From an uncultured Lachnospiraceae bacterium (lineage in GTDB: Bacteria > Bacillota > Clostridia > Lachnospirales > Lachnospiraceae), in NCBI GenBank assembly GCA_947628705.1, contig CANRAZ010000002.1:1128-65127 (forward strand): a stretch of 64,000 bases of DNA. Direction: 5' to 3'. Under the pieces are notes generated by a model. The model made no database searches. It saw only the letters and a list, made by a program, of their open reading frames with translations, and was not told the origin of the DNA. Positions 714 through 24,290 of this stretch are shown piece after piece. Within the stretch, counting starts at the first letter, position 1, and each line of letters begins with the position of its first letter. Both the position numbers and the translations under genes were made by a program.

Positions 714-1538
714 CTACTTAAACAGTATAAGCATATAATAGACTACGGGCGCTACAAATATTACAGAATCGAAACGGTCCATTATTCCGCCGTGGCTCGG
801 TATAAGATTTCCGTAATCCTTAATTTTATAATCTCTCTTTATCGCAGAGGCTGCCAAATCTCCAAACATGGAAATTATTGCGCAAACCGCAACGGTTACC
901 GGAAGCGCAAGCTCAGGAAAACTCAAAAGCTCAAGCTTATCCGAAAAGATCAATGCAAAAACAAAGGCAACCAACACAGACGCAAGAACGCCTCCGACGC
1001 AGCCCTCCCATGTTTTTTTAGGACTTAATACGGGAAATGCTTTGTGCTTTCCGAAGAAAACACCTGAAAAATAAGCAAAGGTATCGCATATCCATGAAGC
1101 GATAAAAATTATCCATACAAGATAAATTCCGCTTTCAAGGGAACGAATAATGTAAACAAAGCCTAAAAGCACTCCTGCATAAAAAAGGCTGAAAAAACAC
1201 GACATGGTCTCCAACGCCTTGCATTTAGGAAATGAGATTACGTAGGACATCATCAAAACGATGAAAAAAAAGACGAGAAAAAGCATAAAAGCCGAAGTCT
1301 TAAGGTTTTCGCCCAGCAGCCTGTCTCCCATTGCAATAAGCCCGATATAGTACGCAATGTCAGCGGCATAGGTTATAAACCCCTGAACTGTTTTTTCCAT
1401 TTTGAATACTTTTAGAAGTTCATATATGCCGACAAGAGAAACCGCTCCAAGAACGACGCCTAAAAAAACTCCGCCGATAAGAAGAGTCGGGACTAAAATT
1501 ATTCCCAGTACGATTCCGCTGATAATTCTCTGTTTCAC
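714..1538 (-). CDS. cdsA: phosphatidate cytidylyltransferase (CDP-diglyceride synthase)
   Basis: 274-aa polytopic membrane ORF. The C-terminal KRDYKIKDYGNLIPSHGGIMDRFDS matches the CdsA signature. The GTG start overlaps the uppS stop (GTGA). Confidence 0.9.
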   Translation of the reverse strand: MKQRIISGIVLGIILVPTLLIGGVFLGVVLGAVSLVGIYELLKVFKMEKTVQGFITYAADIAYYIGLIAMGDRLLGENLKTSAFMLFLVFFFIVLMMSYVISFPKCKALETMSCFFSLFYAGVLLGFVYIIRSLESGIYLVWIIFIASWICDTFAYFSGVFFGKHKAFPVLSPKKTWEGCVGGVLASVLVAFVFALIFSDKLELLSFPELALPVTVAVCAIISMFGDLAASAIKRDYKIKDYGNLIPSHGGIMDRFDSVIFVAPVVYYMLILFK

Positions 1539-2272
1539 TTTACTCCCCCAAAACGCCTGTCCCGGCTGTTGTAATATTCGATGGCTTTTTTTAATTCTTC
1601 CTTGTTAAAGTCAGGCCACAGCACATCCGTAAAATAAAATTCGGAATATGCAAGCTGCCACGGAAGAAAGTTAGACGTGCGGTACTCTCCGCTTGTCCTT
1701 ATCAGTAGATCAGGATAAGGAATTCCGCAGGTGTCAAGATGAGAGCTTATGAGTTCCTCGTCAATCTGCTGCGGAGACAGCTTTCCGCTTACCGCTTCTT
1801 CGCATATTGTCCTGACAGCACGCACTATTTCATCTCTGCCGCCATAATTTATTGCGACCTGAAAATTAAGTCCCGTGTTATTTTTTGTCGCTTCCTCAAG
1901 TCTTAGTATTGACTTCCTAAGATCATCGTCCAGCCTTGATATGTCGCCGATAACACGGACCCTCATGTTGTTTTTTGAGCTTCTTTCTATACTGTCCTTC
2001 ATATACTTGCGCAGAAGATCCATAAGAGCCGAAACCTCGCTTTCAGGTCTCGCCCAGTTTTCGGTGGAAAAAGCATATATGGTAAGGTACTTGATGCCAA
2101 GGTCGTAAGCGTCCTCGCAGATCTGCTCTGCGGTTCTGCTTCCCTGCACATGTCCGGCAGTACGCGGAAGAAAACGTTTTTTTGCCCACCGTCCGTTTCC
2201 GTCCATTATTATAGCGACATGCTCCGGCGCAGTCAGGTTCTGTTCCGCAATATTTTTAGACGCTTTTGCCAT
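1535..2272 (-). CDS. uppS: undecaprenyl-diphosphate synthase (cis-prenyltransferase)
   Basis: Carries the HVAIIMDGNGRWAKKR and IRTSGEYRTSNFLPWQLAYSEFYF motifs. I moved the start to the ATG at 2270-2272, which is preceded by GGAGGA. The track ORF extends to 2326 with no RBS. Confidence 0.92.
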   Translation of the reverse strand: MAKASKNIAEQNLTAPEHVAIIMDGNGRWAKKRFLPRTAGHVQGSRTAEQICEDAYDLGIKYLTIYAFSTENWARPESEVSALMDLLRKYMKDSIERSSKNNMRVRVIGDISRLDDDLRKSILRLEEATKNNTGLNFQVAINYGGRDEIVRAVRTICEEAVSGKLSPQQIDEELISSHLDTCGIPYPDLLIRTSGEYRTSNFLPWQLAYSEFYFTDVLWPDFNKEELKKAIEYYNSRDRRFGGVK

Positions 2273-2340
2273 CTGAATCCTCCGAAATTTATAGTTGGCG
2301 CCGTCCTTGAGTATAAATGCCGGCAATAAAATTCTATTGA

Positions 2341-2417: not shown

Positions 2418-2969
2418 TTATACAGTCATAATCTCCTTCGACTTGCTGTCAATCATTTTGTCAATTGTCTCAATATACTTGTCAGTAGTCTTCTGAACAT
2501 CATTCTCAAGCTTCTTGGACTCGTCCTCCGAAAGCTCGGCTTTTGACGCCTTCTTTATCGCATCGTTCGCATCACGTCTTATGTTTCTGATTGCGACCTT
2601 TGCAGCCTCACCCTTCTTTTTCACGTCCTTAACAAGCTCTTTACGTCTTTCCTCCGTAAGCTCAGGGAACGTAAGCCTGATGATCTTGCCGTCGTTGCTT
2701 GGGGTGATTCCGATGTCCGAAGCAAGTATTGCCTTTTCGATTTCCTTTATCATTCTGCTCTCCCATGGCTGTATCGCAATCACTCTTGCTTCCGGAACGC
2801 TTATGTTCGCAACGCTCTGAATGCTGGACGGAGTACCGTAGTAGTCAACGTGGAGCTTATCAAGGAGATGCGGATTTGCGCGCCCTGCACGTATGCTTGC
2901 ATACTCCTCGTCAAGATTGTTAATCGTTTTTGTCATTTTTGTGTCAAACGGTTCAATGATCGGATTCAT
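2418..2969 (-). CDS. frr: ribosome recycling factor
   Basis: MNPIIEPFDTKMTKTINNLDEEYASIRAGRANPHLLD... is typical of Frr. The ATG at 2967-2969 is preceded by AAGGAGA. The longer track ORF adds a poly-R/K artefact. Confidence 0.93.
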   Translation of the reverse strand: MNPIIEPFDTKMTKTINNLDEEYASIRAGRANPHLLDKLHVDYYGTPSSIQSVANISVPEARVIAIQPWESRMIKEIEKAILASDIGITPSNDGKIIRLTFPELTEERRKELVKDVKKKGEAAKVAIRNIRRDANDAIKKASKAELSEDESKKLENDVQKTTDKYIETIDKMIDSKSKEIMTV

Positions 2970-3045
2970 TCTTCTTCTCCTTTTTCTTCTCTTTTTTGTT
3001 ATTCGGCTTCCCGGCAATATAATTTACAGCTTTTCAGCCGGACTG

Positions 3046-3747
3046 TCAGTAAACTATCGTTCCGGTAATATTTCCCGAAACATTGTTTACAATGGCATTT
3101 TCCTCGTTGAGAGAAAACACCAGAGTGGAAACCCCATTTTCCATGCACATTACGGTCGCTGTAAGATCCAGAACCGAAAGCTTTTTGTCAAGAAGCTCCT
3201 GATAGGTAACCTTTGAATACTTTTTCGCATCAGGATTAACTTTAGGGTCGCTGTCATAAACTCCGTCTACAGCCCTTGCCATAACGATTACCTCGCATTC
3301 AAGCTCAATCGCACGCAAAGCAGTCGTAGTATCCGTTGAAAAATACGGATGACCTGTGCCGCCCGCAAGAAAAACGACCTTTCCTGCCTCCATGTCGCCA
3401 ACGGCTTTGTCCTTGGAAAAGAGTTCGGTAAAGCTTCCGCATGCAAAAGGAGTGTAAATTGCGGTTTCCATTCCGACGTATCTGCAAATCTCAGACATGT
3501 AAATACAGTTCATTACCGTTCCCAGCATTCCAATTGAATCAGCCTTTGTCCTGTCGATCGTGTGAGAGCTTCTGCCCCTCCAGAAATTTCCGCCGCCGGT
3601 AACTACCGCAACCTGAATTCCCTTTTCCGTAATCTGTTTTATTTGCTTTGCAACAGCTATGCAGGTTTCTTCATCAAAGCCCGTCTTTTTTTCACCTGCC
3701 AAGGCTTCGCCGCTGAGTTTTAACAAAACCCTCTTAAATTCTGACAT
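3046..3747 (-). CDS. pyrH: UMP kinase
   Basis: KRVLLKLSGEAL and GGGNFWRG motifs. 233 aa. Canonical position upstream of frr. Confidence 0.95.
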   Translation of the reverse strand: MSEFKRVLLKLSGEALAGEKKTGFDEETCIAVAKQIKQITEKGIQVAVVTGGGNFWRGRSSHTIDRTKADSIGMLGTVMNCIYMSEICRYVGMETAIYTPFACGSFTELFSKDKAVGDMEAGKVVFLAGGTGHPYFSTDTTTALRAIELECEVIVMARAVDGVYDSDPKVNPDAKKYSKVTYQELLDKKLSVLDLTATVMCMENGVSTLVFSLNEENAIVNNVSGNITGTIVY

Positions 3748-3795: not shown

Positions 3796-3824
3796 ATTTT
3801 AGCACATAAAGAAAGGATTATCAA
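3796..3824 (-). promoter_or_regulatory. putative sigma-A promoter for pyrH
   Basis: Minus strand: TTGATA (3824-3819), 17-nt spacer, TAAAAT (3801-3796). It lies directly after the adhesin terminator hairpin. Confidence 0.45.
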
Positions 3825-3828
3825 GCAG

Positions 3829-3872
3829 AAAACGGCACTGCAGGCTAAATGTCGCCTGCCGTACCGTTTTTT
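3829..3872 (-). terminator. intrinsic terminator-like hairpin downstream of the adhesin gene (bidirectional shape)
   Basis: acggcactgcaggc (3832-3845) pairs with gcctgccgtaccgt (3854-3867), giving 12 of 14 positions paired and an 8-nt loop. It is flanked by an A-run on one side and a T-run on the other. Confidence 0.55.
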
Positions 3873-3955
3873 CAGCTTTATCAACCGATTCGCCCCTTCC
3901 GCTGACGCCAACGTCCTTCAGGGCTTTGTACCAATATTCTATCAGTATGAAAATA

Positions 3956-6900
3956 CTAAGCTTCTTCCTCTTTACGTTTTCTGCAAGCCGCAGCAAAGCA
4001 TATTGCAGATGTTACTGCAAGGAACGCCCAAGCCGCAGGGAATGAAGAATCGCCTGTTTTCGGAGTGTCAGGAACATCAGGAGCGTCCTGCTTGATATCC
4101 GCGTATACGTTCGTAAAAGCAAGCTCTTCCTTTGAATTGCCCGACACCGTCACGGTATAAATTCCGTCAAAGCTCTCATCAACGACATTAACGGCTATCT
4201 TCCGTACCTTTGTATCATAGGTCATGCCCTTCTCGCTTCCTTCAATCTCGTAAATCACGAAGTTCCACAGCCCTTCTTCGTTAAACACAATGTCTCCGAA
4301 CGCAGCGGCATAGCCCTCTGTAAGCTGCGTAATTTCAAGCTGCGTGATTTCCGGAAGAATAATCCTTCCTTCCTCAATCGCATCAAGGGTCGCGTCGTCA
4401 CCGCCTTCAAGAACAAACAGGAATTTATCGTTGCCGTTCCACTGTCTGCCGGACAGCTTCTTTGAGACGACAAGATTTGCAGAACCGTTAAGAGTTCCTG
4501 TCGCACGGTAGCTGTTCGTAAAGGTAATCTCAACATCTTCCATATCGACATATGTCTTCTGAACCTTCACGCCGTCGTCGCCGATTTCCTCACCCGTCTG
4601 TACTTTGACGGTCACTGTGTACACGCTGTTATCGTAGGTTACGCCCTTGTAAACCCATCTGCCGTCTACAAGCACTGCGCCGTCAAGAGCTTCGCCGTCA
4701 AACGTTCCGTCCGCCGTCGGCTGCTTTTCTCTTACGGTATAGGTGTAAACCGCTGCGTCCTCCGCAGAAGCGCCCGCATTTTCAGGAGTAAAGACAATTC
4801 CGTCAAACAATACGCCTCCGTCCGAAAGGTTATGAGCCTCAAATCCGACAAGACCGTCGGCAGTCTTTTCAGAACCTTCAGGCATCGGAACGCCTTCTTC
4901 CGCCTCAAGAACAAACGTAAACTCTCCTTCATTGAGCTGTCTGCCTGTCAGCGCCTTTAACGCATCTATAACAACAGAATCCACATCAAAGAAATAGGTA
5001 TTTGTAAAGTCCGCATTGGAAGCATCGGCGGACGTCCATTCTTCTCCGGAACCGTCGCTGCTCACTTCAAATTTACTGCTTTCAACAGACATTGTGCCGT
5101 CACCGTTATCTTTAACGTTAACCGTAAGCCTGTATACCGCCGCGTCATAATTAACGCCCTCAATATTTGCAACTCCCGGCATGTCAGAGGAAAGCTCATA
5201 TATCAGGTATTCGTAGCTGCCCGGCTCTGTAAAGACAATCGGGTCGTCTTTACCGCCAAAGCAGAACAATGAACCGCTTCCGTCAGGAGAAGGCGTAAGA
5301 ATTGCCAATGATTTCTTAGGGAGCGGCGCACCGTCCTTCGCTGTCATTGCAAAGTAGAATTTGTCGCCGTCCTTAAATTCACGTCCCTTAAGGACCTTGC
5401 TTCCGGAAACGCTTATGTCTGCTTCCAGTTCGTCAACCGTATAGGTATTGGCAAATTCAAATCTGCCGTCTGCTTCCGCTCCCTCGGCCTTAACGGTAAA
5501 CGTACCGTTGAAATCCTCGTCAGTTACGGTAACCGTAAACACGTAAGCCTCACCGTCATACGTCACTCCGTCAATTCTGCTTCCGCCGTTCAATTCGCTG
5601 ACCCTAAACCTGTACTTGCCCTCTGCATAGAATTTAATATTTCCGAAAGCCTCGGTAAGAGCCGCCGTCCTGAAGTTTATCTTAATCTCCGTATTTGACG
5701 GAAGAACAACGCTGCCGTCTTTTACGGCGCTTTCCGTGTCCGCATCGTAAGGAGCAAGAACAAAAGCAAACTCATCGTTTTCGTTCCATTCCCTTCCCGT
5801 AAGAGATTTCGAAACCTTAAGATACGTCTCGCCCTCAAGAGTTCCCTCGGCGCTGTAGCTGTTGCGGAAAGCAAATTCATTTCCCTTAACATCTGCAAAT
5901 ACCGTTTGGGTAACAATTCCATTGGAATCGACGATATCCTCAGTCCATACCGAAACGCTGACGGTCTTTACCGAGCTGTCATAGGTTACGCCTCTGTAAA
6001 CCCATCTGCTGTCTTCAAGCACCGCGCCGTCAAGAGCCTTGCCCTCGAAAGTACCGTCATCAGTAGGCTGCTTTTCAGTCACCGTGTAAACATATGTTTT
6101 GGCAGCCGCCTTTCCGACTCCGGCATCAGCCACCGTAAATTTGATATCGCCGAAGTGGATTATTCCGCCTGCTCCATTGACAATATCCTTGCGTGCGACG
6201 CCGTCTTTCGAAGTAAATCCCTCCGGCATCGGAGTACCGTCCTCAGCCTCAAGCACGAACCCGAACTCACCGGCAGAGAGCTCTTTTCCGTCAAGTGCTT
6301 TGATTCCGTCGATTTCCGCTAACGCTTCTTTAGAATTGTAGGTATTTGTAAAGTCAGCGGAGTCCGCTTCATTTCCTGCCGTGCCGCCTGCTTCCGGAAG
6401 GACGCTGAGGCTCTGGGAAGCCGTCATCGTACCGTCATTGTTGTCTGTTACGCTGACCGTAAGAACATAAATCCGACTGTCATAATTCATTCCCGGAATA
6501 AGATCCTTTACAGGCTTTTCCTCTCTTATGAGGTAGAAATATGTTCCCGGAGCAGCATATGTTATCTTGTCATTCTCGCCTCCGAAGGTAAAGCTGTTGT
6601 TTACGACCCTGCCTTCAGAATCCGTTTCAGGCTTAACTGTAACGCTTGTCGTTTTCGGGAGAGGCGCACCGTCAAGCGACGTCATTGTAAAGGTAAACTC
6701 ATCTCCCGGCATAAAAGTGCGGTCGCCCGTAAGAGTCTTTGTTCCCGAAACGGTTATATCCGCTTCAAGCTCGTCGACTGTGTAGGTGTTTGTAAACACG
6801 TAAGGCTTGGCGCTGCTTCCGTCCTGTGCGGCGGTCGTGTTTGTCACAGCGGCACTAAGCTCACCCGTTCCAGTATCCGTCACTGTAACCTTGATTTCAA

Positions 6901-9900
6901 GAGGCGCTGCAAAGGTGATCCCGTCAATCCTGTCCTTATCGTCAACAGGCTTTCCGTTTCTGTATTCGGTTACCGTGAATACATAATCCCCTGCTTTGCT
7001 GAAGGTAATGTCTCCGAAAGCAGCCGTGTGCCTGCCGGAAGCGTCCGTCGTTTTGCTGTTAATCACTACGGACGGCGGAAGCATAACGGTTCCGTCTGCT
7101 ACTCCGTCAACTGTAGCACTATCGCCTGCTTTTGCCGAAAGGACAAATTCAAACTCGTCTGTCTCAAGCCATTGATCGTCCTTCCTGCCCTTAAGAACCT
7201 TGTCAATATTAAGGCTTGCCGAGCCTGAAAGCTTTCCGTCAGCCTTATAATCATTGATAAAATCAACTCTGTCTCCCGAAGCATTTGACGCATGAATCTC
7301 TGTAGACAGCTCAGCCTTTCTTGCAGTGTAGCCGTCGTCCGCAGTTTCTTCCTCTGTTACGGTACATTGTGTTCCGTTCGGAAGTCCGTTGATTTTAGCG
7401 GTCTGACCGTGGCTCAGATATATGCTGCCGCCGGATTTAACGCTGCCGCTTGCAACCGTTCCCTCCGAATCGGTTACAACGTAGGTATATACCTCATCTG
7501 CATCGGTAAGCTCTTCACCGTAACCGTCGCTAAATTTCAAAGTAAACTTAAACGATTTGTCGCGGTTTATAACTCCTGTCGTGCTTTCAATTGTTTTGGT
7601 TATTACAAGAGAGCCCTCGTCTCTGCTGTTAATGAACTCCGCAGCTGCATTTTGGCCGTCGATGGTTCCTTCAGCACTCTTAGGGACTTCAGTTTCATAA
7701 CCGTTTTTATCGGCATCTGTTTCCGTAACCTCATAACTGTAACCGTCAGGCAGCTTGTAGATAACTGCGCTCTCATCTGCCTTGAGACTGAATTCCGCTT
7801 TGCCTGAAGCGTTGAATTTAATTGTTTCCGTGCCGAGAACCGGAGTCCCCTTTCCTTTTGCAAACGGGAATTCGCCGCTTACAGGATTGCCTTCCGCGTC
7901 CTCAAGATAAACGCTGAAGCCGAAGTCAACGTCCGTTTCTCCTGCTTCTCCGTCGACACCCTTGCTCACGGTAAGAGTGTGAAGGGTACTGTTGTTGAAG
8001 ATGACGGCATCTGACGCAGTCTCATTTAAAAATGCTTCAGTCGTAACTTCATAATCCGTTGCATTACGCACGACATTTACTCTAACGATATATTCCGAAT
8101 CATCTAACTCATAATTTAAAGTGTCGCCCTTCTCTTTAACTTCATATATCTTAAAGTAGTATACTCCTTCTCCCAGGTAATCGGTTTCTTTGAAGTATAT
8201 ATATCCATCTTCACCGTTTTGGGCTTCGTCACTGTAACCATCCTCAACAGGAGTTGTCAGGTCTTCATCAACCTGTACTGCCTTAAATGAGAATATCTGA
8301 TTTGCAGACGGCGAAACAAGAAGCGTTCCGTCGATATATTTCTGGGCTTCAAAGGAAATTTTTTGCTTGGAAACCGAGTAAACCGTTCCAGACTGCATCT
8401 TGAGGAATACGCCTGTGATATTTTTCGATTCGGTTCCTGCTGTCTTTCCTGCGATTTCAACGGTTACCGAGTTCTTAACATTATCAAGACTTGCATACGC
8501 CGCAGTGTTAAATTCGAGACGCACGTCCATATGTTCAGACGGATTCCTGAGAGTAATTACAAAGTCCCTTCCTATACTTGTTATATTGTATTCGTCCGCA
8601 GGAATAGGAGCAGCACTCTTTGTAAACCCGCTCTTTCCGGCAGTCAAATCATAAAGTACAATGCTGTCTTCAAGACACCGCAGACCAAACGGAAGATTAT
8701 CCGTAACTGTTGCTGCGGCTTCACTTCCCAGCTCGGCAATTTCGCCCTGAGACGCTATTTCTTCAAGATGGAAATCAACGCTCCACTTTATAATCGGTTC
8801 GCCGTTGTCAGTGTATACCTGCTCATTTCTTTCCTTAAGCAATTCTCCTGATTTGCTTACAGCATCGGTGTAGACAACTTTCCCAGTGCTTTTGCTTGTC
8901 ATGTTATCCCAGCCGTACCTGCTAAACGCAGCACTGTTGCTCAAGCTGTAGGAAGAATCTTTTTTAATCGAGCTATCGCCGACAGCTTCCATATCAAGAG
9001 ATGTAACATAGTCCAAAACAATGGCGGTTCCCTTTTCAAGAGAATCGAATCTAAGCGTAAAATCCGTCTCTCCGTTTGTTTTAACAGAATATTTCTCCCA
9101 TTCGCCCGAATATGCGCTAAGCTCATCAATTCCTGCTTCAGAGTCAAAAATTACTGTTGAAACCGAATCTTTGTATAAAGTAACCTTCATTGACGAAAGG
9201 TTAAGGTATTTTTTAATCGAAGAATCCGCTGTAAGGCTATCGCTTATGGTAATGTCTTCTGCATCGTTACTGCCTGTTTCGGCCCTAAGTCTCCAAGCCT
9301 GTTCATGTGCTAATCCGGTATCTTCTGCCGTCTTTTCGAACAATGAGTCCTCTTCCTTTTTCACGTTTCCGCTTGTTTCTATATCAAGCATTCCGCCCGG
9401 CAGTCCGGCATTGGCAAAATTTGTAACGCTGTAACCTTCGCTTAGATTTCCGCCGTTTGCTAAAAACTGCTTTTCATCAAGACCAGTCGTGTAAACTATC
9501 TTAAGAGAGCTCTTCATCAGCTGTGCAAATTCAAGACAAAATCCTATGCCCTCGTCATTCAGCGTTAATTTCGCGCCTTTGTAGCAGCCTGCCGCGTCTC
9601 TAATAGTTACAGACGTACCGGGTTCGAAAGAGCCGTCGTAAGAATAAAGCAAATGCGGATTCTCAGGATCACTGTTGTCATAGATTTCAAAAGTTCTGAA
9701 CTCTGTTATGGCAAAAGCGATCTTATCATTTTCAGTCACTTTCTTTCCGTCTCCGGCACTCATTGAATCCTCTACCGAATAGTTATCGATATCGCCGTTG
9801 ACATTAAGCTCCAGACTCCATGTGATTTCATTGTTTTTCACATCAACATCTGCATTTTTTCCGATGGTTCCAAGAAGGTCTATAGGATTTTTAAATTCGT

Positions 9901-12900
9901 AGCTTGAACCTGTATCAGGGAAATTGCCGTCAAATTTATTAAGCGTACCTATAGTAAGAACTTCACCGTTTTTCAGTAAGCCTTCCTTTGCCGCTTCCAT
10001 CATTACAGCGACCCAATCTATGTTAAACCTGTATGTAAAATACACATCTGCATTCCAAGGAAAATGTTCTCCGGAAACAGAAAACATCTCTTTTACCGCC
10101 TCGCCATAGCCTTTCAGTTCGGATTCATCAAGGTCGGTATAATTTTCATCCGCAGGAATGTAAACAATTTCTGAATCTGACGGTATTGTAAACCTGTACT
10201 CAGGATTATTATCCACACGTTCGTCCTTTGGATAAAGCTCGGTTTCCGTGCCGTTTTCCTCGACAAGATACTCTCTAATACGTTCAACCGTAGTGTGCTT
10301 CAGTATCAGTTCCGAAAGCTTCCTGTTAAGCTCGTCATCTGTAACAGCCTTTCCGTCAATCAGCGCATGAACATAAAAACTGTCCGTAGCATAAATAGGA
10401 GCATCGTTTTCATCACCTATGTTGCCTGTATGTACCTTCGCAGTGTAAACATTGGTTTCTGCATTAAAGCCTTTAACGCCGGTCGCCGGTTCAAGGAAGG
10501 CATTACCCATTATAGCCGCCCCTGCACTCACCCAGCTCTCGCTAGGACCTGCTATAGGCATTGTTTTTTTGCTTAACGGATGGCGTGCCGCCGAATACAT
10601 AGCCTTAACCGTAGGTACTGTATTCTTTACGGAAGGATCGGCGGAATATAGCGAAATCGACGAGCCGGCATCAACCTTGCCCGGATATGCAATTGCCGCC
10701 TGACTGTCTATTTCATAGTACCCTTTGTGATAAATTTCGCTGTCCGTTCGGAAGCTGACATTAACCTCGTTTTCTCCTAACAAAAGCGTATATGTTATCA
10801 CAAAATAAAGCTCGTTGGAGAGAGCCGTCCCGTCGGTCTTTGAGACTTCAAAAGCATACAGATTTCCGGTTAAATTCTGAAATTTTTCATTATCTGTTGT
10901 CTTTTCAGGAACTTCTACGCCCAAAGACAGCAGCTGATTTTTTCTTTCCTCCGCTGTATTACCCAAAGAGGATATGCTATAGCCTGTTCCCGGCACAGCT
11001 TTTTCATTTTCATATATCGTAACGAGTTTATTAGGATTGTCCTCGTCAAACAATGTGAGCCTGTTGTCACCGACCTGTATCTTGATATTCTCAACAGTCA
11101 CATAGGAGAGGAACTTGCTGAGAAGCGCCTGCGTTTTAGGGTCATCAGCATCAAAAAGATAATCAGGCGCTCCGCTTCCCGAAACAGCGCTTCCGGAAGT
11201 GTAATATTCCTTGACTCTGTTAATCTGGTCGACAAGGTAAACTTTTTTCTGACCCTGCGGGCCGACGTCCGCAGTTACCCGATAATCATTTTTATAATGA
11301 CCCTTTCCTTTGTCGCTTCCCGTCCACTCTTTTTTAAGTACCGGAGAGGCAGAATAACTGAAGCTCTTTAAGCTTGCAGAATAGGCTCTTCCATTATTGT
11401 TTATCGCCCTGTAGCTTCTCGCTGCCGCATTTTTCAGCTCTATTTTCAGCAATCCTCTAAGACCGTTATCTTCACTGTACTTTTTTATGTCAAAAATTCC
11501 GTTGTAGGCAACCGTCACGCTTCTTACTACACTATTCGCTTCATATCCGTTCTTTCTTGCAGTAAGACCATATATTGTTACCGTAAATCCGCGCTCCATA
11601 TCGCCGGAATATTCCAGCCTTACTTTTACGCTGTCATCTCCAAATTGGCTCCCTGCTACACTGCTCAGCGGACCATAAAACGCGTTATAGGGTGTAACGT
11701 CCTTTTCAACATGCCCGGTTGTTTTTGCTGTTTCAAAGTCACTTTCATCAAAAAGAACCGTATTATAATTTTCACCCGGTCCGCTATCATACGCAAATGA
11801 AACCTTCATGTCAGTAAGCGTAATATATTTAGCCGGAGAAAAGGCAAGTGTTTTACCGCTGTCGTCCTTAACCGTCGTCTGCGACATATTGTCGCTTATT
11901 TTATAGACTCCGGAAAAGCCTTTCTGACCGGCAAAAGTTGACGAAACAGTTGCAACAAACTTATTAAGTTCATTATCGGCATTATTTTCTGTAGAGACAT
12001 TCATTGTCTTACCGCTTATGCCGGGCACAACAGCACTTCCGCTTCCCACTACATCATAAACAGGAGCTTCAAGATGTCCGTCGTAAATCTGAAAATCTGC
12101 ATAATTATTATACGTAAGATTTCCGATATCACTTACAGAATAGTTAGGCATGGTTATATAACGGATCCTCAGTACGGTTTTATCACTGTTGCTATTAAGC
12201 ATATTCCTAATATAATATGACAGGTATCCGTCATAAAAAATCCATCTGGCTCCGCCGCTATTTCTCGAAATAGTTTCCAGGTATTTATTAGGAATTGCAT
12301 TTCCGGCATTGTCATAATACCACGAGGCTGACGCATAACTCCAACCGTCAGCAGGTACAGAATCAATATGAGGCGCTCCAGATATCTCTCCTTGGGTATA
12401 CGGTGTAGGTTTAACGGCGGCAAGATATATGTATCCGCCTTGGAAAACATTGGAAGAACTTCCTGACGTAACCAACATTCCGTTTTCGTCATATGCAGAA
12501 CCTCCCCAAGAATAGCCTGATGGAAGAACGTCATATAATGCTGCTTTGATGCTATCAATCGGAGCGGCAGTACCTGTACTCTGTCTCCACTTGTACCAGT
12601 CAATAAAAGCGGTCAGGTCAATAGACAAATCCCAGCGGATGCTGCCGTCCTCCTGGACAAATCCGTTTTTGTTCAGAACATACGCAGGTCCTTTACTGAG
12701 AGGATGTGAAATACTGCTTTTATATAGAGTGCAAGCATTTTCCACTGCTAAATATGTAGCAAAATTATAATTGTACGGTGACTTGTTTTCGACTGTATTT
12801 TCACCGTTTGGTCCCGTGCTCTCAATAACCTTGCGAAGGTATTTGCTATACGAAACGGAAGCATTGTAGCTGCCCTGATTTTCCGGGAGATTAAACATGT

Positions 12901-15103
12901 AAAGCTCAAATCCCAAAGGGCTTCCCAGAAGCTCCTTATTTCCGTTACCGGCTAAGCCTAAGTTTGTGCTGTTATAGCTTAGAGAGGCATTTGCGCCGGC
13001 ACTGGAAGAACAACAGTACGTTGCACCGTATACGGTTACGGGAGATATAAGCATATATATGTTTTTAGAACGGCTCCCATATGATACTAACTGATCCTGT
13101 TCAGCTGAATAAAGGACAACCCCTGTACTAGAATCAAAATTTGCCCAGCTTCTGTTTTGATTGTATATTTCCTGCATTTCCGCAGCGGCAACAGGGTCAT
13201 TATCACTATTTTTTACGTAATTTATAAGTCCTGAAAACGAACCTGAATAAACAGGTTTAGCTTTACTAATCAGGCTCTGATTCGAATATGTTCCGGCAGA
13301 AAAATCATTCTTTAAACTCAATCCGCTGTCATTCGTTCTTGAAAAGTTACAAGCATACAGGTACATGGAACTGATTTGATTTAGGCTGTCCGGATTAATC
13401 CCCGACTCAGTTACTTTAATCCAATCTTCACCTCCGGAATAGATGTAAGCAGAAACTTTTTCAGCTAAATCACCGCGACCTGAATATCCACTTGAAAAAG
13501 CGCTTGACTTGCAATCATTGTGGTTAAAACTAAAGCCAGGACTGCTAATATTTTTTGTGGCAGTAACCGGAACCTTGACCTCTTCGCCGTTTGATTCATA
13601 TGAAGTAACGGCTTTGTAAGAACGAGACGAGCCGCTCATAGCTGCCGTATAATAAACGTCAACTATATAGCTTAGCTCTACTTTATCTGCATTTATGTTT
13701 TCAATATTTATTTGAAGTTTATCAGCGGAAACAGTGCCGGAGCCTGCGGAAAATCCTCCTGTACTGCTTCCGTCAACAGTAATTTTTCCCGAACCGCTGC
13801 TTCCAGAAAACGAGAAATTTCCTACTCCATTTAAACTGACTGCGCTCTCAGATTTGCCGGAAACTGTCTTTACTTCTAAAAATTTTTCATATCCGCTTGA
13901 AGGAAGCAGCATGACCATTCCAGAGCTTTCAAGCGTTTCGGTAAGACTAATCGAGAGAGGCTGAGTCGGGTCCGGATTTAAAACAGTAAGCGTATACTTT
14001 ATCTGACGGTAAACATTACCGCCGACACTAGAATTCAACAAATTTCCTTCAGAATCAAGCCACTGTGCGTTTTTTTCAACGAGTAAAGGCTCAGCAGGAA
14101 CAACAAGAGGTATGGAATAGCTTCCATACTTTTCGAATTCGACCGGAACTGAGTCTTTTCCTTCAAAGGTATCAGGCAGCTTAGCGTTGTACTGATAGTC
14201 AGCTGTTATGTCTTCTTCTCCTTCTGTATCAAGGAAAAAAATCTGGAAATTGAAGTTCGAGCCTTCCAAAACAAGACGTCCCCACGCACGGGCTTTACCA
14301 AAAGACTGCTGCAACGGTATCCAAACGTTTAAAGGCTCGTCAGTTGCTTCGATACCGCACGGAATCAGATTATCAGGCAAACCAAAAGAATACACAGTAG
14401 CATCCTGAACACCGTTCGTCGGAACCTTAGGGTCATTTTCCTTAATACGAATATTAGAAAGTCTTACAAAGACTTCAGCGTTTTCACGTTCAACAGGTTT
14501 AAAATCACTGCTTTCGACAGAAAGCCCATTGACAAGAACTGCGGTTTCCATTCCGACATGAGTGGAATCTTCATCGAGAACGTCAACTAGCTTTAGCGGA
14601 GCCGAAGCATTTTTTAATGCAATGACCTCAAGCTTTACAGTAGATACTACCGGTGTAGAAACTGAGCTGTGGCTCGCCGAATATGTAACTGCATACGTCA
14701 TGCCGTCCTCAGATTCAGACGGGCTAATAAGATTCGTTCCCTCTATCCAACTATACCCTTCATCTACAGTAATGCCGTCAGCTAGAATTCTGTCTATATT
14801 TGTAACCGTAATAACGGCATCTTCCAATAGGCTACCGTCAGAATCGTATAACCCGACACCACCAAGCAAATCATTTTGGTAATCAGCCAAAAGTATTGAA
14901 AAAGGAACAGTAATCTTCAAACCGCTCTCATCGCTTGAGGCGATATTAGTCTCCTGTTTCTTCTGTTCCACCGAGGCACCTGTCGCAGCCTGTGAAACCC
15001 CTACTGTCTGGAATATCAAGCACAGACACAAAATCCATGACAAAACCCGTCCCGGAACGTCCCTGAACCTTCCAAAGATGTTTTTACCCGCACTTCTCAA
15101 CAT
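3956..15103 (-). CDS. giant cell-wall-anchored adhesin (3715 aa). Layout: signal peptide, about 2300-aa Cna-A/collagen-binding-like region, about 1400-aa stalk of Spy0128/FctA-like and Cna-B-like isopeptide-type domains, then a PKTG sorting signal.
   Basis: A single uninterrupted ORF. The N-terminal signal is ...WILCLCLIFQTVGVSQA|ATG. There are repeated 'x-I-x-W-x-[LV]...[VI]-x-D' segments (EITWSLELNVNG..VEDSM, IIKWSVDFHLE..VTDNL). The stalk domains are delimited by F-x-N-x-Y (FTNTY, FRNSY, FANTY, FTNSY, FTNVY, FINDY) and K-x-L-x-G motifs. The C-terminus is DTPKTGD, then a hydrophobic segment, then RKRKEEEA. Confidence 0.9.
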   Translation of the reverse strand: MLRSAGKNIFGRFRDVPGRVLSWILCLCLIFQTVGVSQAATGASVEQKKQETNIASSDESGLKITVPFSILLADYQNDLLGGVGLYDSDGSLLEDAVITVTNIDRILADGITVDEGYSWIEGTNLISPSESEDGMTYAVTYSASHSSVSTPVVSTVKLEVIALKNASAPLKLVDVLDEDSTHVGMETAVLVNGLSVESSDFKPVERENAEVFVRLSNIRIKENDPKVPTNGVQDATVYSFGLPDNLIPCGIEATDEPLNVWIPLQQSFGKARAWGRLVLEGSNFNFQIFFLDTEGEEDITADYQYNAKLPDTFEGKDSVPVEFEKYGSYSIPLVVPAEPLLVEKNAQWLDSEGNLLNSSVGGNVYRQIKYTLTVLNPDPTQPLSISLTETLESSGMVMLLPSSGYEKFLEVKTVSGKSESAVSLNGVGNFSFSGSSGSGKITVDGSSTGGFSAGSGTVSADKLQINIENINADKVELSYIVDVYYTAAMSGSSRSYKAVTSYESNGEEVKVPVTATKNISSPGFSFNHNDCKSSAFSSGYSGRGDLAEKVSAYIYSGGEDWIKVTESGINPDSLNQISSMYLYACNFSRTNDSGLSLKNDFSAGTYSNQSLISKAKPVYSGSFSGLINYVKNSDNDPVAAAEMQEIYNQNRSWANFDSSTGVVLYSAEQDQLVSYGSRSKNIYMLISPVTVYGATYCCSSSAGANASLSYNSTNLGLAGNGNKELLGSPLGFELYMFNLPENQGSYNASVSYSKYLRKVIESTGPNGENTVENKSPYNYNFATYLAVENACTLYKSSISHPLSKGPAYVLNKNGFVQEDGSIRWDLSIDLTAFIDWYKWRQSTGTAAPIDSIKAALYDVLPSGYSWGGSAYDENGMLVTSGSSSNVFQGGYIYLAAVKPTPYTQGEISGAPHIDSVPADGWSYASASWYYDNAGNAIPNKYLETISRNSGGARWIFYDGYLSYYIRNMLNSNSDKTVLRIRYITMPNYSVSDIGNLTYNNYADFQIYDGHLEAPVYDVVGSGSAVVPGISGKTMNVSTENNADNELNKFVATVSSTFAGQKGFSGVYKISDNMSQTTVKDDSGKTLAFSPAKYITLTDMKVSFAYDSGPGENYNTVLFDESDFETAKTTGHVEKDVTPYNAFYGPLSSVAGSQFGDDSVKVRLEYSGDMERGFTVTIYGLTARKNGYEANSVVRSVTVAYNGIFDIKKYSEDNGLRGLLKIELKNAAARSYRAINNNGRAYSASLKSFSYSASPVLKKEWTGSDKGKGHYKNDYRVTADVGPQGQKKVYLVDQINRVKEYYTSGSAVSGSGAPDYLFDADDPKTQALLSKFLSYVTVENIKIQVGDNRLTLFDEDNPNKLVTIYENEKAVPGTGYSISSLGNTAEERKNQLLSLGVEVPEKTTDNEKFQNLTGNLYAFEVSKTDGTALSNELYFVITYTLLLGENEVNVSFRTDSEIYHKGYYEIDSQAAIAYPGKVDAGSSISLYSADPSVKNTVPTVKAMYSAARHPLSKKTMPIAGPSESWVSAGAAIMGNAFLEPATGVKGFNAETNVYTAKVHTGNIGDENDAPIYATDSFYVHALIDGKAVTDDELNRKLSELILKHTTVERIREYLVEENGTETELYPKDERVDNNPEYRFTIPSDSEIVYIPADENYTDLDESELKGYGEAVKEMFSVSGEHFPWNADVYFTYRFNIDWVAVMMEAAKEGLLKNGEVLTIGTLNKFDGNFPDTGSSYEFKNPIDLLGTIGKNADVDVKNNEITWSLELNVNGDIDNYSVEDSMSAGDGKKVTENDKIAFAITEFRTFEIYDNSDPENPHLLYSYDGSFEPGTSVTIRDAAGCYKGAKLTLNDEGIGFCLEFAQLMKSSLKIVYTTGLDEKQFLANGGNLSEGYSVTNFANAGLPGGMLDIETSGNVKKEEDSLFEKTAEDTGLAHEQAWRLRAETGSNDAEDITISDSLTADSSIKKYLNLSSMKVTLYKDSVSTVIFDSEAGIDELSAYSGEWEKYSVKTNGETDFTLRFDSLEKGTAIVLDYVTSLDMEAVGDSSIKKDSSYSLSNSAAFSRYGWDNMTSKSTGKVVYTDAVSKSGELLKERNEQVYTDNGEPIIKWSVDFHLEEIASQGEIAELGSEAAATVTDNLPFGLRCLEDSIVLYDLTAGKSGFTKSAAPIPADEYNITSIGRDFVITLRNPSEHMDVRLEFNTAAYASLDNVKNSVTVEIAGKTAGTESKNITGVFLKMQSGTVYSVSKQKISFEAQKYIDGTLLVSPSANQIFSFKAVQVDEDLTTPVEDGYSDEAQNGEDGYIYFKETDYLGEGVYYFKIYEVKEKGDTLNYELDDSEYIVRVNVVRNATDYEVTTEAFLNETASDAVIFNNSTLHTLTVSKGVDGEAGETDVDFGFSVYLEDAEGNPVSGEFPFAKGKGTPVLGTETIKFNASGKAEFSLKADESAVIYKLPDGYSYEVTETDADKNGYETEVPKSAEGTIDGQNAAAEFINSRDEGSLVITKTIESTTGVINRDKSFKFTLKFSDGYGEELTDADEVYTYVVTDSEGTVASGSVKSGGSIYLSHGQTAKINGLPNGTQCTVTEEETADDGYTARKAELSTEIHASNASGDRVDFINDYKADGKLSGSASLNIDKVLKGRKDDQWLETDEFEFVLSAKAGDSATVDGVADGTVMLPPSVVINSKTTDASGRHTAAFGDITFSKAGDYVFTVTEYRNGKPVDDKDRIDGITFAAPLEIKVTVTDTGTGELSAAVTNTTAAQDGSSAKPYVFTNTYTVDELEADITVSGTKTLTGDRTFMPGDEFTFTMTSLDGAPLPKTTSVTVKPETDSEGRVVNNSFTFGGENDKITYAAPGTYFYLIREEKPVKDLIPGMNYDSRIYVLTVSVTDNNDGTMTASQSLSVLPEAGGTAGNEADSADFTNTYNSKEALAEIDGIKALDGKELSAGEFGFVLEAEDGTPMPEGFTSKDGVARKDIVNGAGGIIHFGDIKFTVADAGVGKAAAKTYVYTVTEKQPTDDGTFEGKALDGAVLEDSRWVYRGVTYDSSVKTVSVSVWTEDIVDSNGIVTQTVFADVKGNEFAFRNSYSAEGTLEGETYLKVSKSLTGREWNENDEFAFVLAPYDADTESAVKDGSVVLPSNTEIKINFRTAALTEAFGNIKFYAEGKYRFRVSELNGGSRIDGVTYDGEAYVFTVTVTDEDFNGTFTVKAEGAEADGRFEFANTYTVDELEADISVSGSKVLKGREFKDGDKFYFAMTAKDGAPLPKKSLAILTPSPDGSGSLFCFGGKDDPIVFTEPGSYEYLIYELSSDMPGVANIEGVNYDAAVYRLTVNVKDNGDGTMSVESSKFEVSSDGSGEEWTSADASNADFTNTYFFDVDSVVIDALKALTGRQLNEGEFTFVLEAEEGVPMPEGSEKTADGLVGFEAHNLSDGGVLFDGIVFTPENAGASAEDAAVYTYTVREKQPTADGTFDGEALDGAVLVDGRWVYKGVTYDNSVYTVTVKVQTGEEIGDDGVKVQKTYVDMEDVEITFTNSYRATGTLNGSANLVVSKKLSGRQWNGNDKFLFVLEGGDDATLDAIEEGRIILPEITQLEITQLTEGYAAAFGDIVFNEEGLWNFVIYEIEGSEKGMTYDTKVRKIAVNVVDESFDGIYTVTVSGNSKEELAFTNVYADIKQDAPDVPDTPKTGDSSFPAAWAFLAVTSAICFAAACRKRKEEEA
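3959..4066 (-). other. cell-wall sorting signal (TPKTG motif, TM segment, basic tail)
   Basis: ACT CCG AAA ACA GGC lies at 4066-4052 (minus strand). It is followed by SSFPAAWAFLAVTSAICFAAAC and RKRKEEEA. Confidence 0.75.
4100..7250 (-). repeat. in-frame domain super-repeat in the adhesin stalk, order C-A-B-C-A-B-C (period about 1.35 kb for A-B-C)
   Basis: A-type domains start YTVDELEADI[TS]VSG (near 6795 and near 5440). B-type domains contain GEF[GT]FVLEAE[DE]G[TV]PMPEG. C-type domains start Y[KSR]A[DET]G[KT]L.G...L.V.K.L.GR.W (near 7250, near 5890 and near 4530). Confidence 0.8.
4322..4351 (-). repeat. 15-bp in-frame tandem duplication (EITQL-EITQL)
   Basis: aagctgcgtaatttc (4322-4336) is followed directly by aagctgcgtgatttc (4337-4351), with one mismatch. 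Confidence 0.9.
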
Positions 15104-15258
15104 AGCAGCTCTCCCTTCAGACTCTTACATTTCGGTAATTGCGTCCTGTTTATATGATTGGTCTTCTGCTTTGAAAACAAACGCCGTTAGAACCGTATGG
15201 CGTCCTGCATGGAATCAATACAAATAAAACAGTTTTTTGCAAAACATAAGTAATGATT

Positions 15259-15267
15259 ATAATATCA
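15259..15267 (-). promoter_or_regulatory. possible extended -10 promoter element for the adhesin gene
   Basis: The minus strand reads TGATATTAT (TGn plus TATTAT). There is no good -35. It would give a leader of about 145 nt. Confidence 0.3.
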
Positions 15268-15478
15268 CAGCAGACTTAAAATAAAAAGATGCTCAAGAAA
15301 ATAAAATAAAAAGAAAGCATTAACTTCTGTAAAATGACGTTAAACATTACATAGATGCAAATTTTGCCAAAAAACAAGGCTTTGTAACGTAAAAGGCATC
15401 AAAGTAATTGCTAAGTAAGTGTTAAAATTGAATTATTTGAACTGAGAATTAAAATAATCACAGGAAAAAGCTATTGTT

Positions 15479-15585
15479 CTACAACTGTATTGCATGATTT
15501 TATACCATTGGGTTTTAACACTTCATTTGTACTACAAGTGTAGATTTTCAACCGAGTTCCAATATAATTTTATCTACATCTGTAG
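15479..15585. promoter_or_regulatory. three copies of the palindrome CTACA-N2-TGTAG upstream of the adhesin gene
   Basis: CTACAACTGTAT at 15479-15490, CTACAAGTGTAG at 15532-15543, CTACATCTGTAG at 15574-15585. Start-to-start spacing is 53 and 42 bp. The last two copies share a T-rich 3' flank. Confidence 0.5.
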
Positions 15586-15743
15586 TTTTCACTGCTTTTA
15601 TTTCCTTTTTCTAATTTAATTTTTATCAGTTTCATATTTTTAAAGCTTTTCTTTTTTAAGCTTCTCTTTTCCGATTTACTTTATGCGATTCACTTTATGT
15701 GATTCTTTTCAAATGATACTTTTTTACGATTCTTTTTTCACAC

Positions 15744-15775
15744 AAAAAAACATCGGGACAAATATTGTCCCGATG
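15744..15775 (-). terminator. Rho-independent terminator of tsf
   Basis: A perfect 10-bp stem (catcgggaca/tgtcccgatg, 15751-15775) with a 5-nt loop. On the minus strand it is followed by T7 (A-run 15744-15750). Confidence 0.85.
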
Positions 15776-15820
15776 TTTTACCTTTTCTTTTCATTTCAGC
15801 TAATTGCTTTGATAATGCAA

Positions 15821-16762
15821 TTACTGTCCCATCTGCTTTGCAACCTCTGCCGCAAAGTCCTCTTCCTTCTTTTCAATTCCTTCGCCTGTCTCAAAACGAA
15901 CAAACGATTTAATTGAAAGCGCCGAGCCGGAATCCTTGGCAACCTTTTCAACATACTTGGCAACCGTAAATTCTCCGTCCTTTACATATACCTGATCGAC
16001 AAGGCACATTTCCTTAAGCTCTTTATCAAGCCTGCCCGGAACGATTTTTTCAATCACGATATTCTCTGGCTTCGGCTTCTTGCTCTCTGCATTTTCCTTA
16101 AGAGCTTCCTTTGTAATAATCTCTGTTTCAGATGCGATAAAATCTGCCGGAACCTCATTCTTGTCAACGAAGGAAGGTTTCATTGCGCAAACCTGCATTG
16201 CGACGTTTTTAGCGCACTCAACAGCTGCTTCCGTAGCCTCTCCTGCCATCTCAACAAGGATTCCGAGTTTTCCTCCATTGTGAATGTAAGATACAACAAA
16301 TCCGTCATCGGCAACAATTTTTGAGAATCTTCTGATGTCAAGTTTTTCACCGATAACAGCAACAAGGTTTGCAAGCGCATCCTTAACCGTAATAGATGAA
16401 TCCTCACACCAAGGCTCTGCGAGGAACTCTCCGATGTCAGCCGAGCTTGTGTCAGCTGCCTGCTTTGCAACCTTTGCTACAAATGTCTGGAACTTTTCAT
16501 TCTTTGCAACAAAGTCTGTTTCTGAGTTGACCTCAACTACAGCCGCAATCTTGCTGTCCTCGCTTACATAAGCTGCACAGATGCCTTCTGCTGCAATTCT
16601 GCTTTCCTTCTTTGCAGCCTTTGCAAGTCCGTTTTCTCTAAGCCACTGTACCGACTTGTCCATGTCGCCGTCTGTAGCTGTAAGGGCTTTCTTACAGTCC
16701 ATCATTCCGGCTCCAGTCATTTCACGCAGTTCTTTTACCATTCCTGCCGTAATGTTAGCCAT
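15821..16762 (-). CDS. tsf: elongation factor Ts
   Basis: MANITAGMVKELREMTGAGMMDCKKAL N-terminal domain. 313 aa. Lies directly downstream of rpsB. Confidence 0.95.
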   Translation of the reverse strand: MANITAGMVKELREMTGAGMMDCKKALTATDGDMDKSVQWLRENGLAKAAKKESRIAAEGICAAYVSEDSKIAAVVEVNSETDFVAKNEKFQTFVAKVAKQAADTSSADIGEFLAEPWCEDSSITVKDALANLVAVIGEKLDIRRFSKIVADDGFVVSYIHNGGKLGILVEMAGEATEAAVECAKNVAMQVCAMKPSFVDKNEVPADFIASETEIITKEALKENAESKKPKPENIVIEKIVPGRLDKELKEMCLVDQVYVKDGEFTVAKYVEKVAKDSGSALSIKSFVRFETGEGIEKKEEDFAAEVAKQMGQ

Positions 16763-16785: not shown

Positions 16786-17547
16786 TTATGCTTCCTCAGC
16801 AGCTTCTTCAATGTCTTCTGCTTCTGCTGCTTCATCGGAAACCTCTTCCTCCTCTGCAAACGACTCGCCCTGATTTGCTTCAATAACGGCGTCAGCCATC
16901 TTTGAAACAATAAGCTTAACAGCACGTATTGCATCGTCATTTCCAGGGATTACATAATCAAGCTCATCAGGATCACAGTTAGTATCGGCAATTCCGATAA
17001 GAGGAATACCGAGCGAGTGAGCCTCCTGAACACAAATCCTTTCCTTCTTAGGGTCAACTACGAAAATCGCATCAGGAACATTCTTCATTTCCTTGATACC
17101 GCCAAGGTTTTTCTGAAGCTTTTCCATTTCCTTCTTTATTATAACGACTTCCTTCTTAGGGAGAACCTCAAATGTTCCGTCCTCCTCCATTTTTTCGTAA
17201 GCCTTAAGCTTTGCAATTCTCTTCTGGATCGTCTTGAAGTTTGTAAGCATTCCTCCAAGCCATCTCTCATTTACATAGAACATGCCGCAGCGCTCTGCCT
17301 CTGTCTTGACAGAATCCTGAGCCTGCTTCTTTGTACCGACAAAAAGAATTGTTCCTCCGTCAGCCGCGATGTTTTTAACTGCCTCATAGGCTTCATCTAC
17401 TTTTCCGACCGACTTTTGAAGGTCAATGATGTAAATGCCGTTTCTCTCCGTGTAAATGTACGGAGCCATCTTAGGGTTCCATCTTCTCGTCTGATGTCCG
17501 AAATGGACGCCTGCCTCAAGCAGCTGTTTCATTGAAATTACGCTCAT
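16786..17547 (-). CDS. rpsB: 30S ribosomal protein S2
   Basis: [27 protein letters not shown]. The ATG at 17545-17547 is preceded by GGAGGA. There is an acidic C-terminal tail. The track ORF extension to 17601 is rejected. Confidence 0.95.
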
Positions 17548-17657
17548 TTTAAATCCTCCGTGGTTTTGTTCTTCCATGCCGTCTGCTTCCGATAAAATCA
17601 CACGAGCGATGTGACACCGAACGGAAAGTCAAGCATGTGTTTTTTTCATACCGATAT

Positions 17658-18664: not shown

Positions 18665-18800
18665 TTCCCGGCTGTTACTGCCCTTTCCAAGCTGTTAACA
18701 TTTTTTTCTCTGCCTGCCTGTTAACATTTTCGTTTTTCCTAACTGTTAACACTTTCCGCCTCCTTTTCCATGCTGCTGACATTTTCTGCCTTTTCCGTAT
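18665..18800 (-). repeat. degenerate tandem repeat of about 21-30 bp (minus strand: GAAAA..ATGTTAACAG) spanning the topA stop codon
   Basis: Plus-strand copies are ctgttac (18672), ctgttaaca (18692), ctgttaaca (18718), ctgttaaca (18743) and ctgctgaca (18772). Each is followed by a T-rich run. Confidence 0.55.
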
Positions 18801-20772: not shown

Positions 20773-20803
20773 TCTTTTCTCAATCCTCTGCTTAAAGTTA
20801 ATT

Positions 20804-21928: not shown

Positions 21929-21950
21929 ATTTCTCTCCTGTCTCTATTTT

Positions 21951-23495: not shown

Positions 23496-23609
23496 AACCG
23501 ATTCTCCTTTATTTTGATAATTACAAATAAAAATACAACGATAAAAGACATTTTCGTTTTACTCATAAAGAATACTACTTTCAGGCAAAAAATGCTATGT
23601 GCAAAATAC

Positions 23610-24232: not shown

Positions 24233-24290
24233 ATGTAATCCTCCTGTTATAATTCTCTGAAACGTATATTCTGAACGACCTGAAATTTTT

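Follow-up and report, generated by a model that had tools for sequence, protein, structure and literature searches.

Is a giant surface-protein gene that separates two housekeeping operons an exceptional event, or does it occupy a place where unrelated genes are commonly found? The question is raised by a 64,000-nucleotide stretch of DNA from an uncultured Lachnospiraceae bacterium (assembly GCA_947628705.1, contig CANRAZ010000002.1, positions 1,128 to 65,127), hereafter the window, in which a single 11-kb open reading frame (ORF), encoding an adhesin-like protein of 3715 amino acids, lies between the tsf and pyrH genes. An earlier note, made from the sequence alone, had described this adhesin gene as an old, domesticated insertion that splits a near-universal gene pair in a highly expressed neighbourhood. 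The comparisons presented here lead to another view: the adhesin gene is likely to be species-specific cargo in a variable tsf-pyrH slot devoid of mobile-element genes, with recombination in the flanks as its probable route of entry. Its placement is ordinary for the Lachnospiraceae; the protein itself is rare.

The tsf-pyrH interval in the Lachnospiraceae

The adjacency of tsf and pyrH was surveyed across the Lachnospiraceae, every genus being represented by one genome of at least 90% completeness, by parsing the gene coordinates of the 116 genomes that possess both genes. Only one genus (G098; this and similar handles are our own labels) has the two genes within 600 bp of each other. They are demonstrably apart in 92 of the 116 genera, the remaining 23 not being assignable, and the separated genes are arranged in three ways:

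30 genomes of 116: colinear, with 1.1-24.6 kb between tsf and pyrH
9 genomes of 116: on one contig, far apart or on opposite strands
53 genomes of 116: on separate contigs, the side where the partner is expected holding over 1.5 kb of other DNA

Elsewhere in the order, 9 of the 15 genomes from other families have tsf next to pyrH, and tsf-pyrH-frr is treated as a common cluster in the literature (PMC2837039); the adjacency is therefore ancestral and has been routinely lost in the Lachnospiraceae. The description of tsf and pyrH as a near-universal pair does not hold for this family, with one adjacent case against 92 separated ones and with unrelated cargo in the gaps of close relatives. Routine separation of the two genes by unrelated genes in the lineage had been named in advance as an observation that would speak against the earlier view, and it is what the survey found. 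That a giant gene breaks this pair thus matters little, since the pair is almost never intact in the Lachnospiraceae and the regulatory features cited in its support are ancestral, as detailed below.

Among the closer relatives of the window's genome, the following contents of the gap were found:

Empty gap: L019 (458 bp), L020 (251 bp), G004 (173 bp) and G007 (185 bp)
Genes for a solute-binding protein and two ABC permeases: L016, L017, L021, L022, L029 and L033
IMS (Y-family polymerase) gene and a small ORF: G005 and G008
Bactofilin and polysaccharide deacetylase genes: G013 (similar ORFs in G018 and L064)
Chemotaxis-receptor-like gene: G017
Unrelated genes upstream of pyrH: G001, G002 and G006

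The gap between terminator and promoter is a recurrent variable slot between two operons, holding different cargo in different species. The earlier note had regarded the adhesin gene as an insertion, which is borne out by the empty sites of close relatives, set against the ancestral adjacency of tsf and pyrH. It had also proposed to compare this interval among related genomes for the presence or absence of the adhesin. On that comparison, the insertion stands (empty sites of 173-458 bp), other cargo is common, and the N-terminal 2300 residues of the protein, hereafter the head, were found in none of the 40 relatives searched, eight congeners included.

Within the sister clade, six species carry the ABC module and two (L019 and L020) are empty, which points to gain and loss of one cargo within the clade. 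This module is composed, in the six species, of a lipoprotein solute-binding protein and two permeases, without an ATPase. Concerning G013 (L007, 5656-8188), a bactofilin protein of about 500 amino acids and a polysaccharide deacetylase of about 320 amino acids are encoded directly upstream of pyrH. ORFs with similar termini lie upstream of pyrH in L005 (G018) and L064, Pfam having been run on the G013 pair alone. Bactofilin and deacetylase may be a conserved pair and not random cargo.

The corresponding region of the window is organised as follows:

18739-20871, minus strand: topA (Pfam)
17794-18561, minus strand: codY (Pfam)
16786-17601, minus strand: rpsB (Pfam)
15821-16762, minus strand: tsf, encoding EF-Ts of 313 amino acids (Pfam EF_TS, E 1.9e-66), last gene of the rpsB-tsf unit
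15747-15779, minus strand: Rho-independent terminator of tsf, a perfect 15-bp stem and a T-run (dG -21.2 kcal/mol, z -5.3)
15104-15820, minus strand: AT-rich spacer upstream of the adhesin gene, 717 bp with a GC content of 0.294, presumed to hold promoter and leader
3956-15103, minus strand: giant surface-protein gene, 3715 amino acids, intact (single open frame; Pfam domains)
about 3823-3878, minus strand: terminator hairpin of the adhesin gene itself, then UUUUCUGCUU (dG -31.2 kcal/mol, z -6.7)
3796-3824, minus strand: promoter-like site of pyrH, TTGATA-17-TGcTAAAAT, with an extended -10 (sequence scan)
3046-3747, minus strand: pyrH, encoding UMP kinase (Pfam AA_kinase), first gene of the pyrH-frr-uppS-cdsA unit
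2418-3017, minus strand: frr (Pfam)
1535-2326, minus strand: uppS (Pfam)
714-1538, minus strand: cdsA (Pfam)

The 11-kb ORF is a genuine and intact gene, probably monocistronic, that encodes a giant surface protein of the Gram-positive type. The ORF list gives it as one uninterrupted frame between tsf and pyrH, at the very coordinates that had been reported, and its orientation is, as previously stated, that of its neighbours, all genes from topA to cdsA being on the minus strand according to Pfam. Several details of the intergenic regions had likewise been read correctly from the sequence, and others needed adjustment. The promoter-like element of pyrH was recovered by the scan at identical coordinates; the strong terminator of tsf is there, with a measured span of 15747-15779 instead of 15744-15775, and its hairpin is undivided; and the upstream region of the adhesin gene is indeed AT-rich, its length being 717 bp and not 716 bp. 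The terminator hairpin of the adhesin gene was absent from the earlier note.

The terminator and the promoter had been interpreted as acquisitions of tsf and pyrH. A GC-rich hairpin with a T-run was found directly after tsf in every relative examined, including the four adjacent cases L019, L020, G004 and G007. In the same way, an alignment of the window with eight congeners over the 130 bp before pyrH shows in each of them, at a constant distance from the start codon, a -35 of TTGA type followed by an extended -10 (TGnTAnAAT), whatever the content upstream. Because both features are present even in relatives with adjacent tsf and pyrH, they are ancestral, and the insertion did not give rise to them. 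They constitute the normal border of two transcription units, and the adhesin gene lies exactly between them. In Escherichia coli, a terminator downstream of tsf likewise closes the annotated operon, and read-through of it is partial (PMC6131387). Here, a benefit from read-through is not indicated, since two strong terminators flank the adhesin gene, which also has its own 717-bp spacer, and the idea of a placement in a highly expressed neighbourhood has been given up on the same grounds.

Concerning the spacer itself, an Rfam scan assigned it to no family (a sub-threshold chance match only, 20.9 vs 60 bits), no copies were found elsewhere in the genome or in the loci of relatives, and its small ORFs are short, of chance size, none being credible. 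A GGGAG sequence is located 8 nt ahead of the ATG of the adhesin gene. On the coding strand, no strong sigma-70-type promoter was seen near the start codon, the best candidate (GTGAAA-17-TATCAT, at 15741-15713) lying about 610 nt upstream.

Phylogenetic conflict of tsf

The tsf gene of the window is 79-81% identical to those of G005, G008, L019-L022, L029 and L033, and only 42-51% identical to those of its congeners G001, G004 and G007. The pyrH identities between the window and its relatives in the genus range from 77 to 89%, and codY and topA of G004 and G007 resemble those of the window more closely than do those of L019-L022 and L029. A maximum-likelihood (ML) tree of pyrH, frr, uppS and cdsA groups the six members of the genus together (100/100). 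The tsf tree places the window's genome (G000), G005 and G008 with the sister-clade loci (100/100), and G001 with G017 and a metagenome-assembled genome (MAG) labelled Tyzzerella (99/99). Monophyly of the genus is rejected for tsf by the approximately unbiased (AU) test (delta lnL 230, p 0.006). This conflict is not a binning artefact, because tsf and pyrH share one contig in G000, G001, G004, G005, G007 and G008. The gene phylogenies suggest that foreign copies have repeatedly taken the place of EF-Ts, an essential translation factor.

In the comparison of the window with loci L001-L008 and L016-L033, tsf falls into three or more deeply divided lineages within this one genus, among which a "long" type of 362-381 amino acids with an insertion of about 55 amino acids. 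The identities of rpsB, codY and topA display no split comparable to that of tsf.

According to Oliveira, Touchon, Cury & Rocha (2017, PMC5635113), hotspots that lack mobile elements probably diversify through double recombination in the core genes on their flanks. With its variable cargo, its lack of mobile-element genes and an incongruent core gene on its flank, the tsf-pyrH gap matches this published description. We propose tentatively, as a possibility still short of being probable, that the gap is a lineage-wide recombination hotspot of the Lachnospiraceae, without mobile elements, that moves both cargo and whole EF-Ts alleles across genera. If this is true, foreign copies would repeatedly take the place of EF-Ts, together with the exchange of niche-specific surface genes. 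The locus offers a clear and quantified case of a variable slot that lies between housekeeping operons and lacks mobile elements, and in which the flanking essential tsf appears to be replaced between genera, and tsf replacement at a recurrent slot is a more interesting lead than the placement of the adhesin gene.

The giant surface protein and its relatives

From its N-terminus to its C-terminus, the product of the adhesin gene comprises the following parts:

14984-15103, minus strand: putative signal peptide, about residues 1-40, with a basic n-region, the hydrophobic core VLSWILCLCLIFQTVGV and SQA/A (read by eye from the translation)
8206-14983, minus strand: N-terminal passenger region, about residues 41-2300, non-repetitive and almost orphan (self-comparison, PDB and protein searches)
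9464-9865, minus strand: Collagen_bind-like domain, residues 1747-1880 (PF05737, 33.7 bits vs a cut-off of 27.5, E 5e-8)
4067-8205, minus strand: stalk of about 11 CnaB/FctA-type domains (Pfam, NCBIfam, PDB matches, self-comparison and motif pattern)
3959-4066, minus strand: cell-wall sorting signal, with TPKTGD, a 22-residue hydrophobic segment and RKRKEEEA (translation)

The stalk extends from about residue 2300 to residue 3675. Pfam detected eight FctA domains (PF12892, 401 bits, E 8.7e-122), two DUF7601, two DUF5979 and the Collagen_bind domain in the giant protein, and the NCBIfam model TIGR03786 matched it in five stretches (175.7 bits). Self-comparison revealed two super-repeats of 450 amino acids (residues 2695-3150 and 3152-3600) that are 42-53% identical; at the DNA level, no tandem repeats were found in the stalk. 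Its PDB matches are the T-antigen pilins of Streptococcus pyogenes (8f70, 6n0a and 6bbw) and ancillary protein 1 (2xi9 and 4bug), with E values from 3.7e-17 to 4e-4. Elements of the isopeptide triad recur along the stalk, with nine Glu motifs (YxYxVxE) and ten FxNxY-like Asn motifs, one per domain, each after a K-x-L-x-G-R/K strand; the Lys lies in the first strand of a domain and the Asn in the last. Judging from these motifs, the stalk domains are of the Spy0128/FctA (CnaB-type) isopeptide family, each with a Lys-Glu-Asn triad in which a bond would be expected to form.

As for the head, self-comparison found no internal repeats over its 2300 residues, and it has no relatives in the PDB, the structure matches being confined to the stalk. 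AlphaFold2 run without alignment on residues 150-750 yielded an unusable model (pLDDT 35). Collagen_bind is the sole family match of the head, and a weak one. A label as Cna-type MSCRAMM was considered and not given, since 1700 amino acids separate this weak domain from the N-terminus and the remainder of the head belongs to no known family. The 2300-residue head, without known fold, may serve rumen or gut Lachnospiraceae as a species-specific attachment factor.

Three sortase-domain proteins (PF04203 matches above cut-off) are encoded in the genome. Two of them, one of class C and one unclassed, are encoded on contig C5 next to two LPxTG pilin-like genes, and the third, class-B-like, lies on contig C6. 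The xPxTGD motif, followed by a membrane segment and a basic tail, terminates eight ORFs of the genome, the giant ORF included, and the exact TPKTGD is found in three others. By this terminal signature, the giant protein appears to use the general sorting system of its host. The earlier label of "sortase-type adhesin" is justified by the sorting signal, the stalk domains and the presence of sortases in the genome. The xPxTGD motif set, together with the class-B-like sortase, would extend the Clostridioides difficile type of sorting to the Lachnospiraceae.

Two further observations concern this system. The terminal motifs of the eight ORFs include four TPKTGD as well as VPKTGD, TPPTGD, TPATGD, APQTGD and QPQTGD variants. 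The class-B-like sortase (G000, C6:23897-25837) is 646 amino acids long and carries an acidic, repeat-rich N-terminal extension of about 370 amino acids before its membrane segment.

Taken together with the architecture of the protein, a scheme can be proposed in which the giant protein would be secreted via Sec by means of its signal peptide, cut at TPKT/G and covalently linked to the peptidoglycan, probably by the class-B-like sortase, which probably also serves the seven other xPxTGD proteins. The stalk of about 11 CnaB/FctA domains would hold the head away from the cell, thereby presenting a non-repetitive putative binding region of about 2300 amino acids, one Cna-type collagen-binding-like domain included.

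Searches for relatives returned few proteins. The central 1201 amino acids of the head have a relative in one of 400 other Lachnospiraceae genera (G190), and the first 1200 amino acids have eight relatives among 1.84 billion representative proteins. Those of the eight that are full-length are giant proteins, several of them ending in sorting-type signals (SPKSG, SKTGD, SPTTG and LPDTG). In a word-indexed search of 15 billion proteins for similarly sized relatives, nothing but the giant protein itself was recovered, on one contig only. A 500-residue fragment of the head used as query gave no match, GTDB genomes and JGI metagenomes scanned for the back-translated pattern of the first 1200 amino acids yielded no relative, and plasmid and phage collections contained no match to the adhesin.

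The nearest relative, P0002 (3379 amino acids), is colinear with the giant protein and 39% identical over 3493 amino acids. It is encoded on a contig of a related Lachnospiraceae, between genes for an EamA transporter and a Na/Ala symporter, and the corresponding site in the genome of the window is occupied by another gene. The G190 relative (3746 amino acids, ending in AKTGD) is located among sugar-utilisation genes. Linkage of the adhesin family to the tsf-pyrH site was also considered and has been rejected, both relatives of known context (P0002 and G190) sitting elsewhere. In G190 (contig C85, L096 and L097), a second giant ORF of 2112 amino acids (31284-37622) precedes the adhesin relative (19575-30815) on the same strand.

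The gene family is old, because its architecture is common to the 39%-identical relative. It is an old and rare family, scattered over different loci, of giant wall-anchored proteins, and the head of the present member is almost orphan.

Entry of the gene and comparison with known systems

In the reading that we favour, rpsB-tsf and pyrH-frr-uppS-cdsA are two ancestral transcription units with a terminator and a promoter between them, and the adhesin gene most probably entered the gap through recombination in the conserved genes on either side, no mobile element being involved. The same process would have swapped whole tsf alleles between lineages. Once in place, the gene is predicted to be insulated on its upstream side by the tsf terminator and on its downstream side by a terminator of its own, and its transcription presumably starts in the AT-rich spacer that precedes it.

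A number of points weigh against this reading. Recombination as the route of entry is read from the pattern of the sequences, and our confidence in it is lower than in the reading as a whole. The long branches of G007 and G013 affect the tsf tree, which fixes neither the direction nor the number of the tsf replacements. The genome is a MAG of 89 contigs with a completeness of 86%, and no conspecific genome was found in the word-indexed, fragment, GTDB and JGI metagenome searches. As for the sorting system, the class-B assignment of the sortase is under the NCBIfam cut-off (125 bits with TIGR03064, vs an equivalog cut-off of 153.75).

An alternative is that the adhesin gene has long been resident in the gap, having entered early, become domesticated and been lost from the sampled relatives. 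We consider this unlikely, even though several properties of the gene agree with it. Its GC content is 0.450, vs a mean of 0.451 for the ORFs of the genome; its codon-usage distance falls within the 17th-78th percentile of host genes and its tetranucleotide distance within the 72nd-95th, the highest values being those of the compositionally biased stalk. The earlier note had judged composition by eye to resemble that of the neighbours, and the codon-usage and k-mer tests that it suggested are in agreement. The host-type sorting motif, the stalk super-repeats, only 42-53% identical and without repeats at the DNA level, and the age of the family, deduced from the architecture common to the 39%-identical relative, also fit a long residence. 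Against these stand the absence of the head from all 40 relatives, the eight congeners among them, the empty sites or other cargo of congeners and sister clade, and the location of the adhesin relatives at other loci. In addition, host-like composition cannot date the entry, because P0002, from another Lachnospiraceae, has a similar GC content (0.447); with related donors equal in GC, composition is uninformative. Of the description "old, domesticated", adaptation to the host is retained and age is not, given the head missing from 40 relatives, a central part found in one of 400 genera and a GC content that gives no date.

Insertion by a mobile element, be it a transposon, an integrative element or a terminator-targeting cassette with decayed signatures, is still less probable. 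As the earlier note had reported, no integrase, transposase, tRNA or flanking direct repeat is present, each of them having been looked for: the ORF list contains no ORF of integrase or transposase size in the tsf-pyrH interval, no tRNA was found in positions 1-24000 of the window, and no direct repeat longer than 9 nt is common to both flanks, which equals the expectation from shuffled sequences. Thus, none of the four marks of a genomic island or integrative element (integrase or transposase, tRNA target, flanking repeats and deviant composition) is present. The perfect and undivided hairpin of the tsf terminator also speaks against a mobile element, and an insertion within that hairpin was rejected for this reason, as do the spacer without copies elsewhere in the genome and the lack of plasmid or phage relatives of the adhesin.

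An assembly artefact, in which a MAG contig would join the tsf and pyrH sides through a gene from elsewhere or from another organism, might be suspected from the incompleteness of the MAG, its fragmentation and the occurrence of the protein on one contig only, and is very improbable given that no repeats able to mislead an assembler lie at the junctions, that both flanks are phylogenetically from the same genus, that the composition and sorting motif of the gene match the rest of the genome and that the contig is continuous over 87.5 kb.

The favoured reading, that of species-specific cargo in a variable slot, and the protein that this cargo encodes, can be compared with several known systems. 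The S. pyogenes Spy0128/T-antigen pilins share with the giant protein the domain family of the stalk and the recurring Lys, Glu and Asn. These pilins are subunits of 30-80 kDa polymerised by class C sortases, whereas a single chain of 3715 amino acids carries about 11 tandem domains here, its gene is without an adjoining sortase, and its 2300-residue head is unrelated to pilins.

Concerning the sorting signal, the substrates of SrtB in C. difficile, such as the collagen-binding CD630_33920 ending in SPKTGD (PMC4155245), display the same succession of xPKTGD, hydrophobic segment and basic tail. The two systems also have in common a class-B-like sortase encoded at a distant place in the genome and a domain of collagen-binding type. 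The C. difficile SrtB signals are (S/P)PXTG, whereas those of the present genome, as read from the translations, mostly have Thr at the first position, and the sortase differs from SrtB by its 646 amino acids, its long acidic N-terminal extension and a score below the SrtB equivalog cut-off.

At the level of the locus, the known tsf-pyrH neighbourhood (PMC6131387, PMC2837039) resembles that of the window in having a Rho-independent terminator after tsf and a separately transcribable pyrH, without a strict operon. That neighbourhood is conserved, whereas in the Lachnospiraceae it is usually broken. Finally, the slot resembles the hotspots of PMC5635113 by its single core-gene interval with differing cargo, its lack of integrase, tRNA and repeats, and the incongruence of a flanking core gene (tsf). 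Those hotspots were defined within species, whereas the turnover reported here is seen between species and genera, and the flanking gene that appears to have been replaced is one for an essential translation factor.

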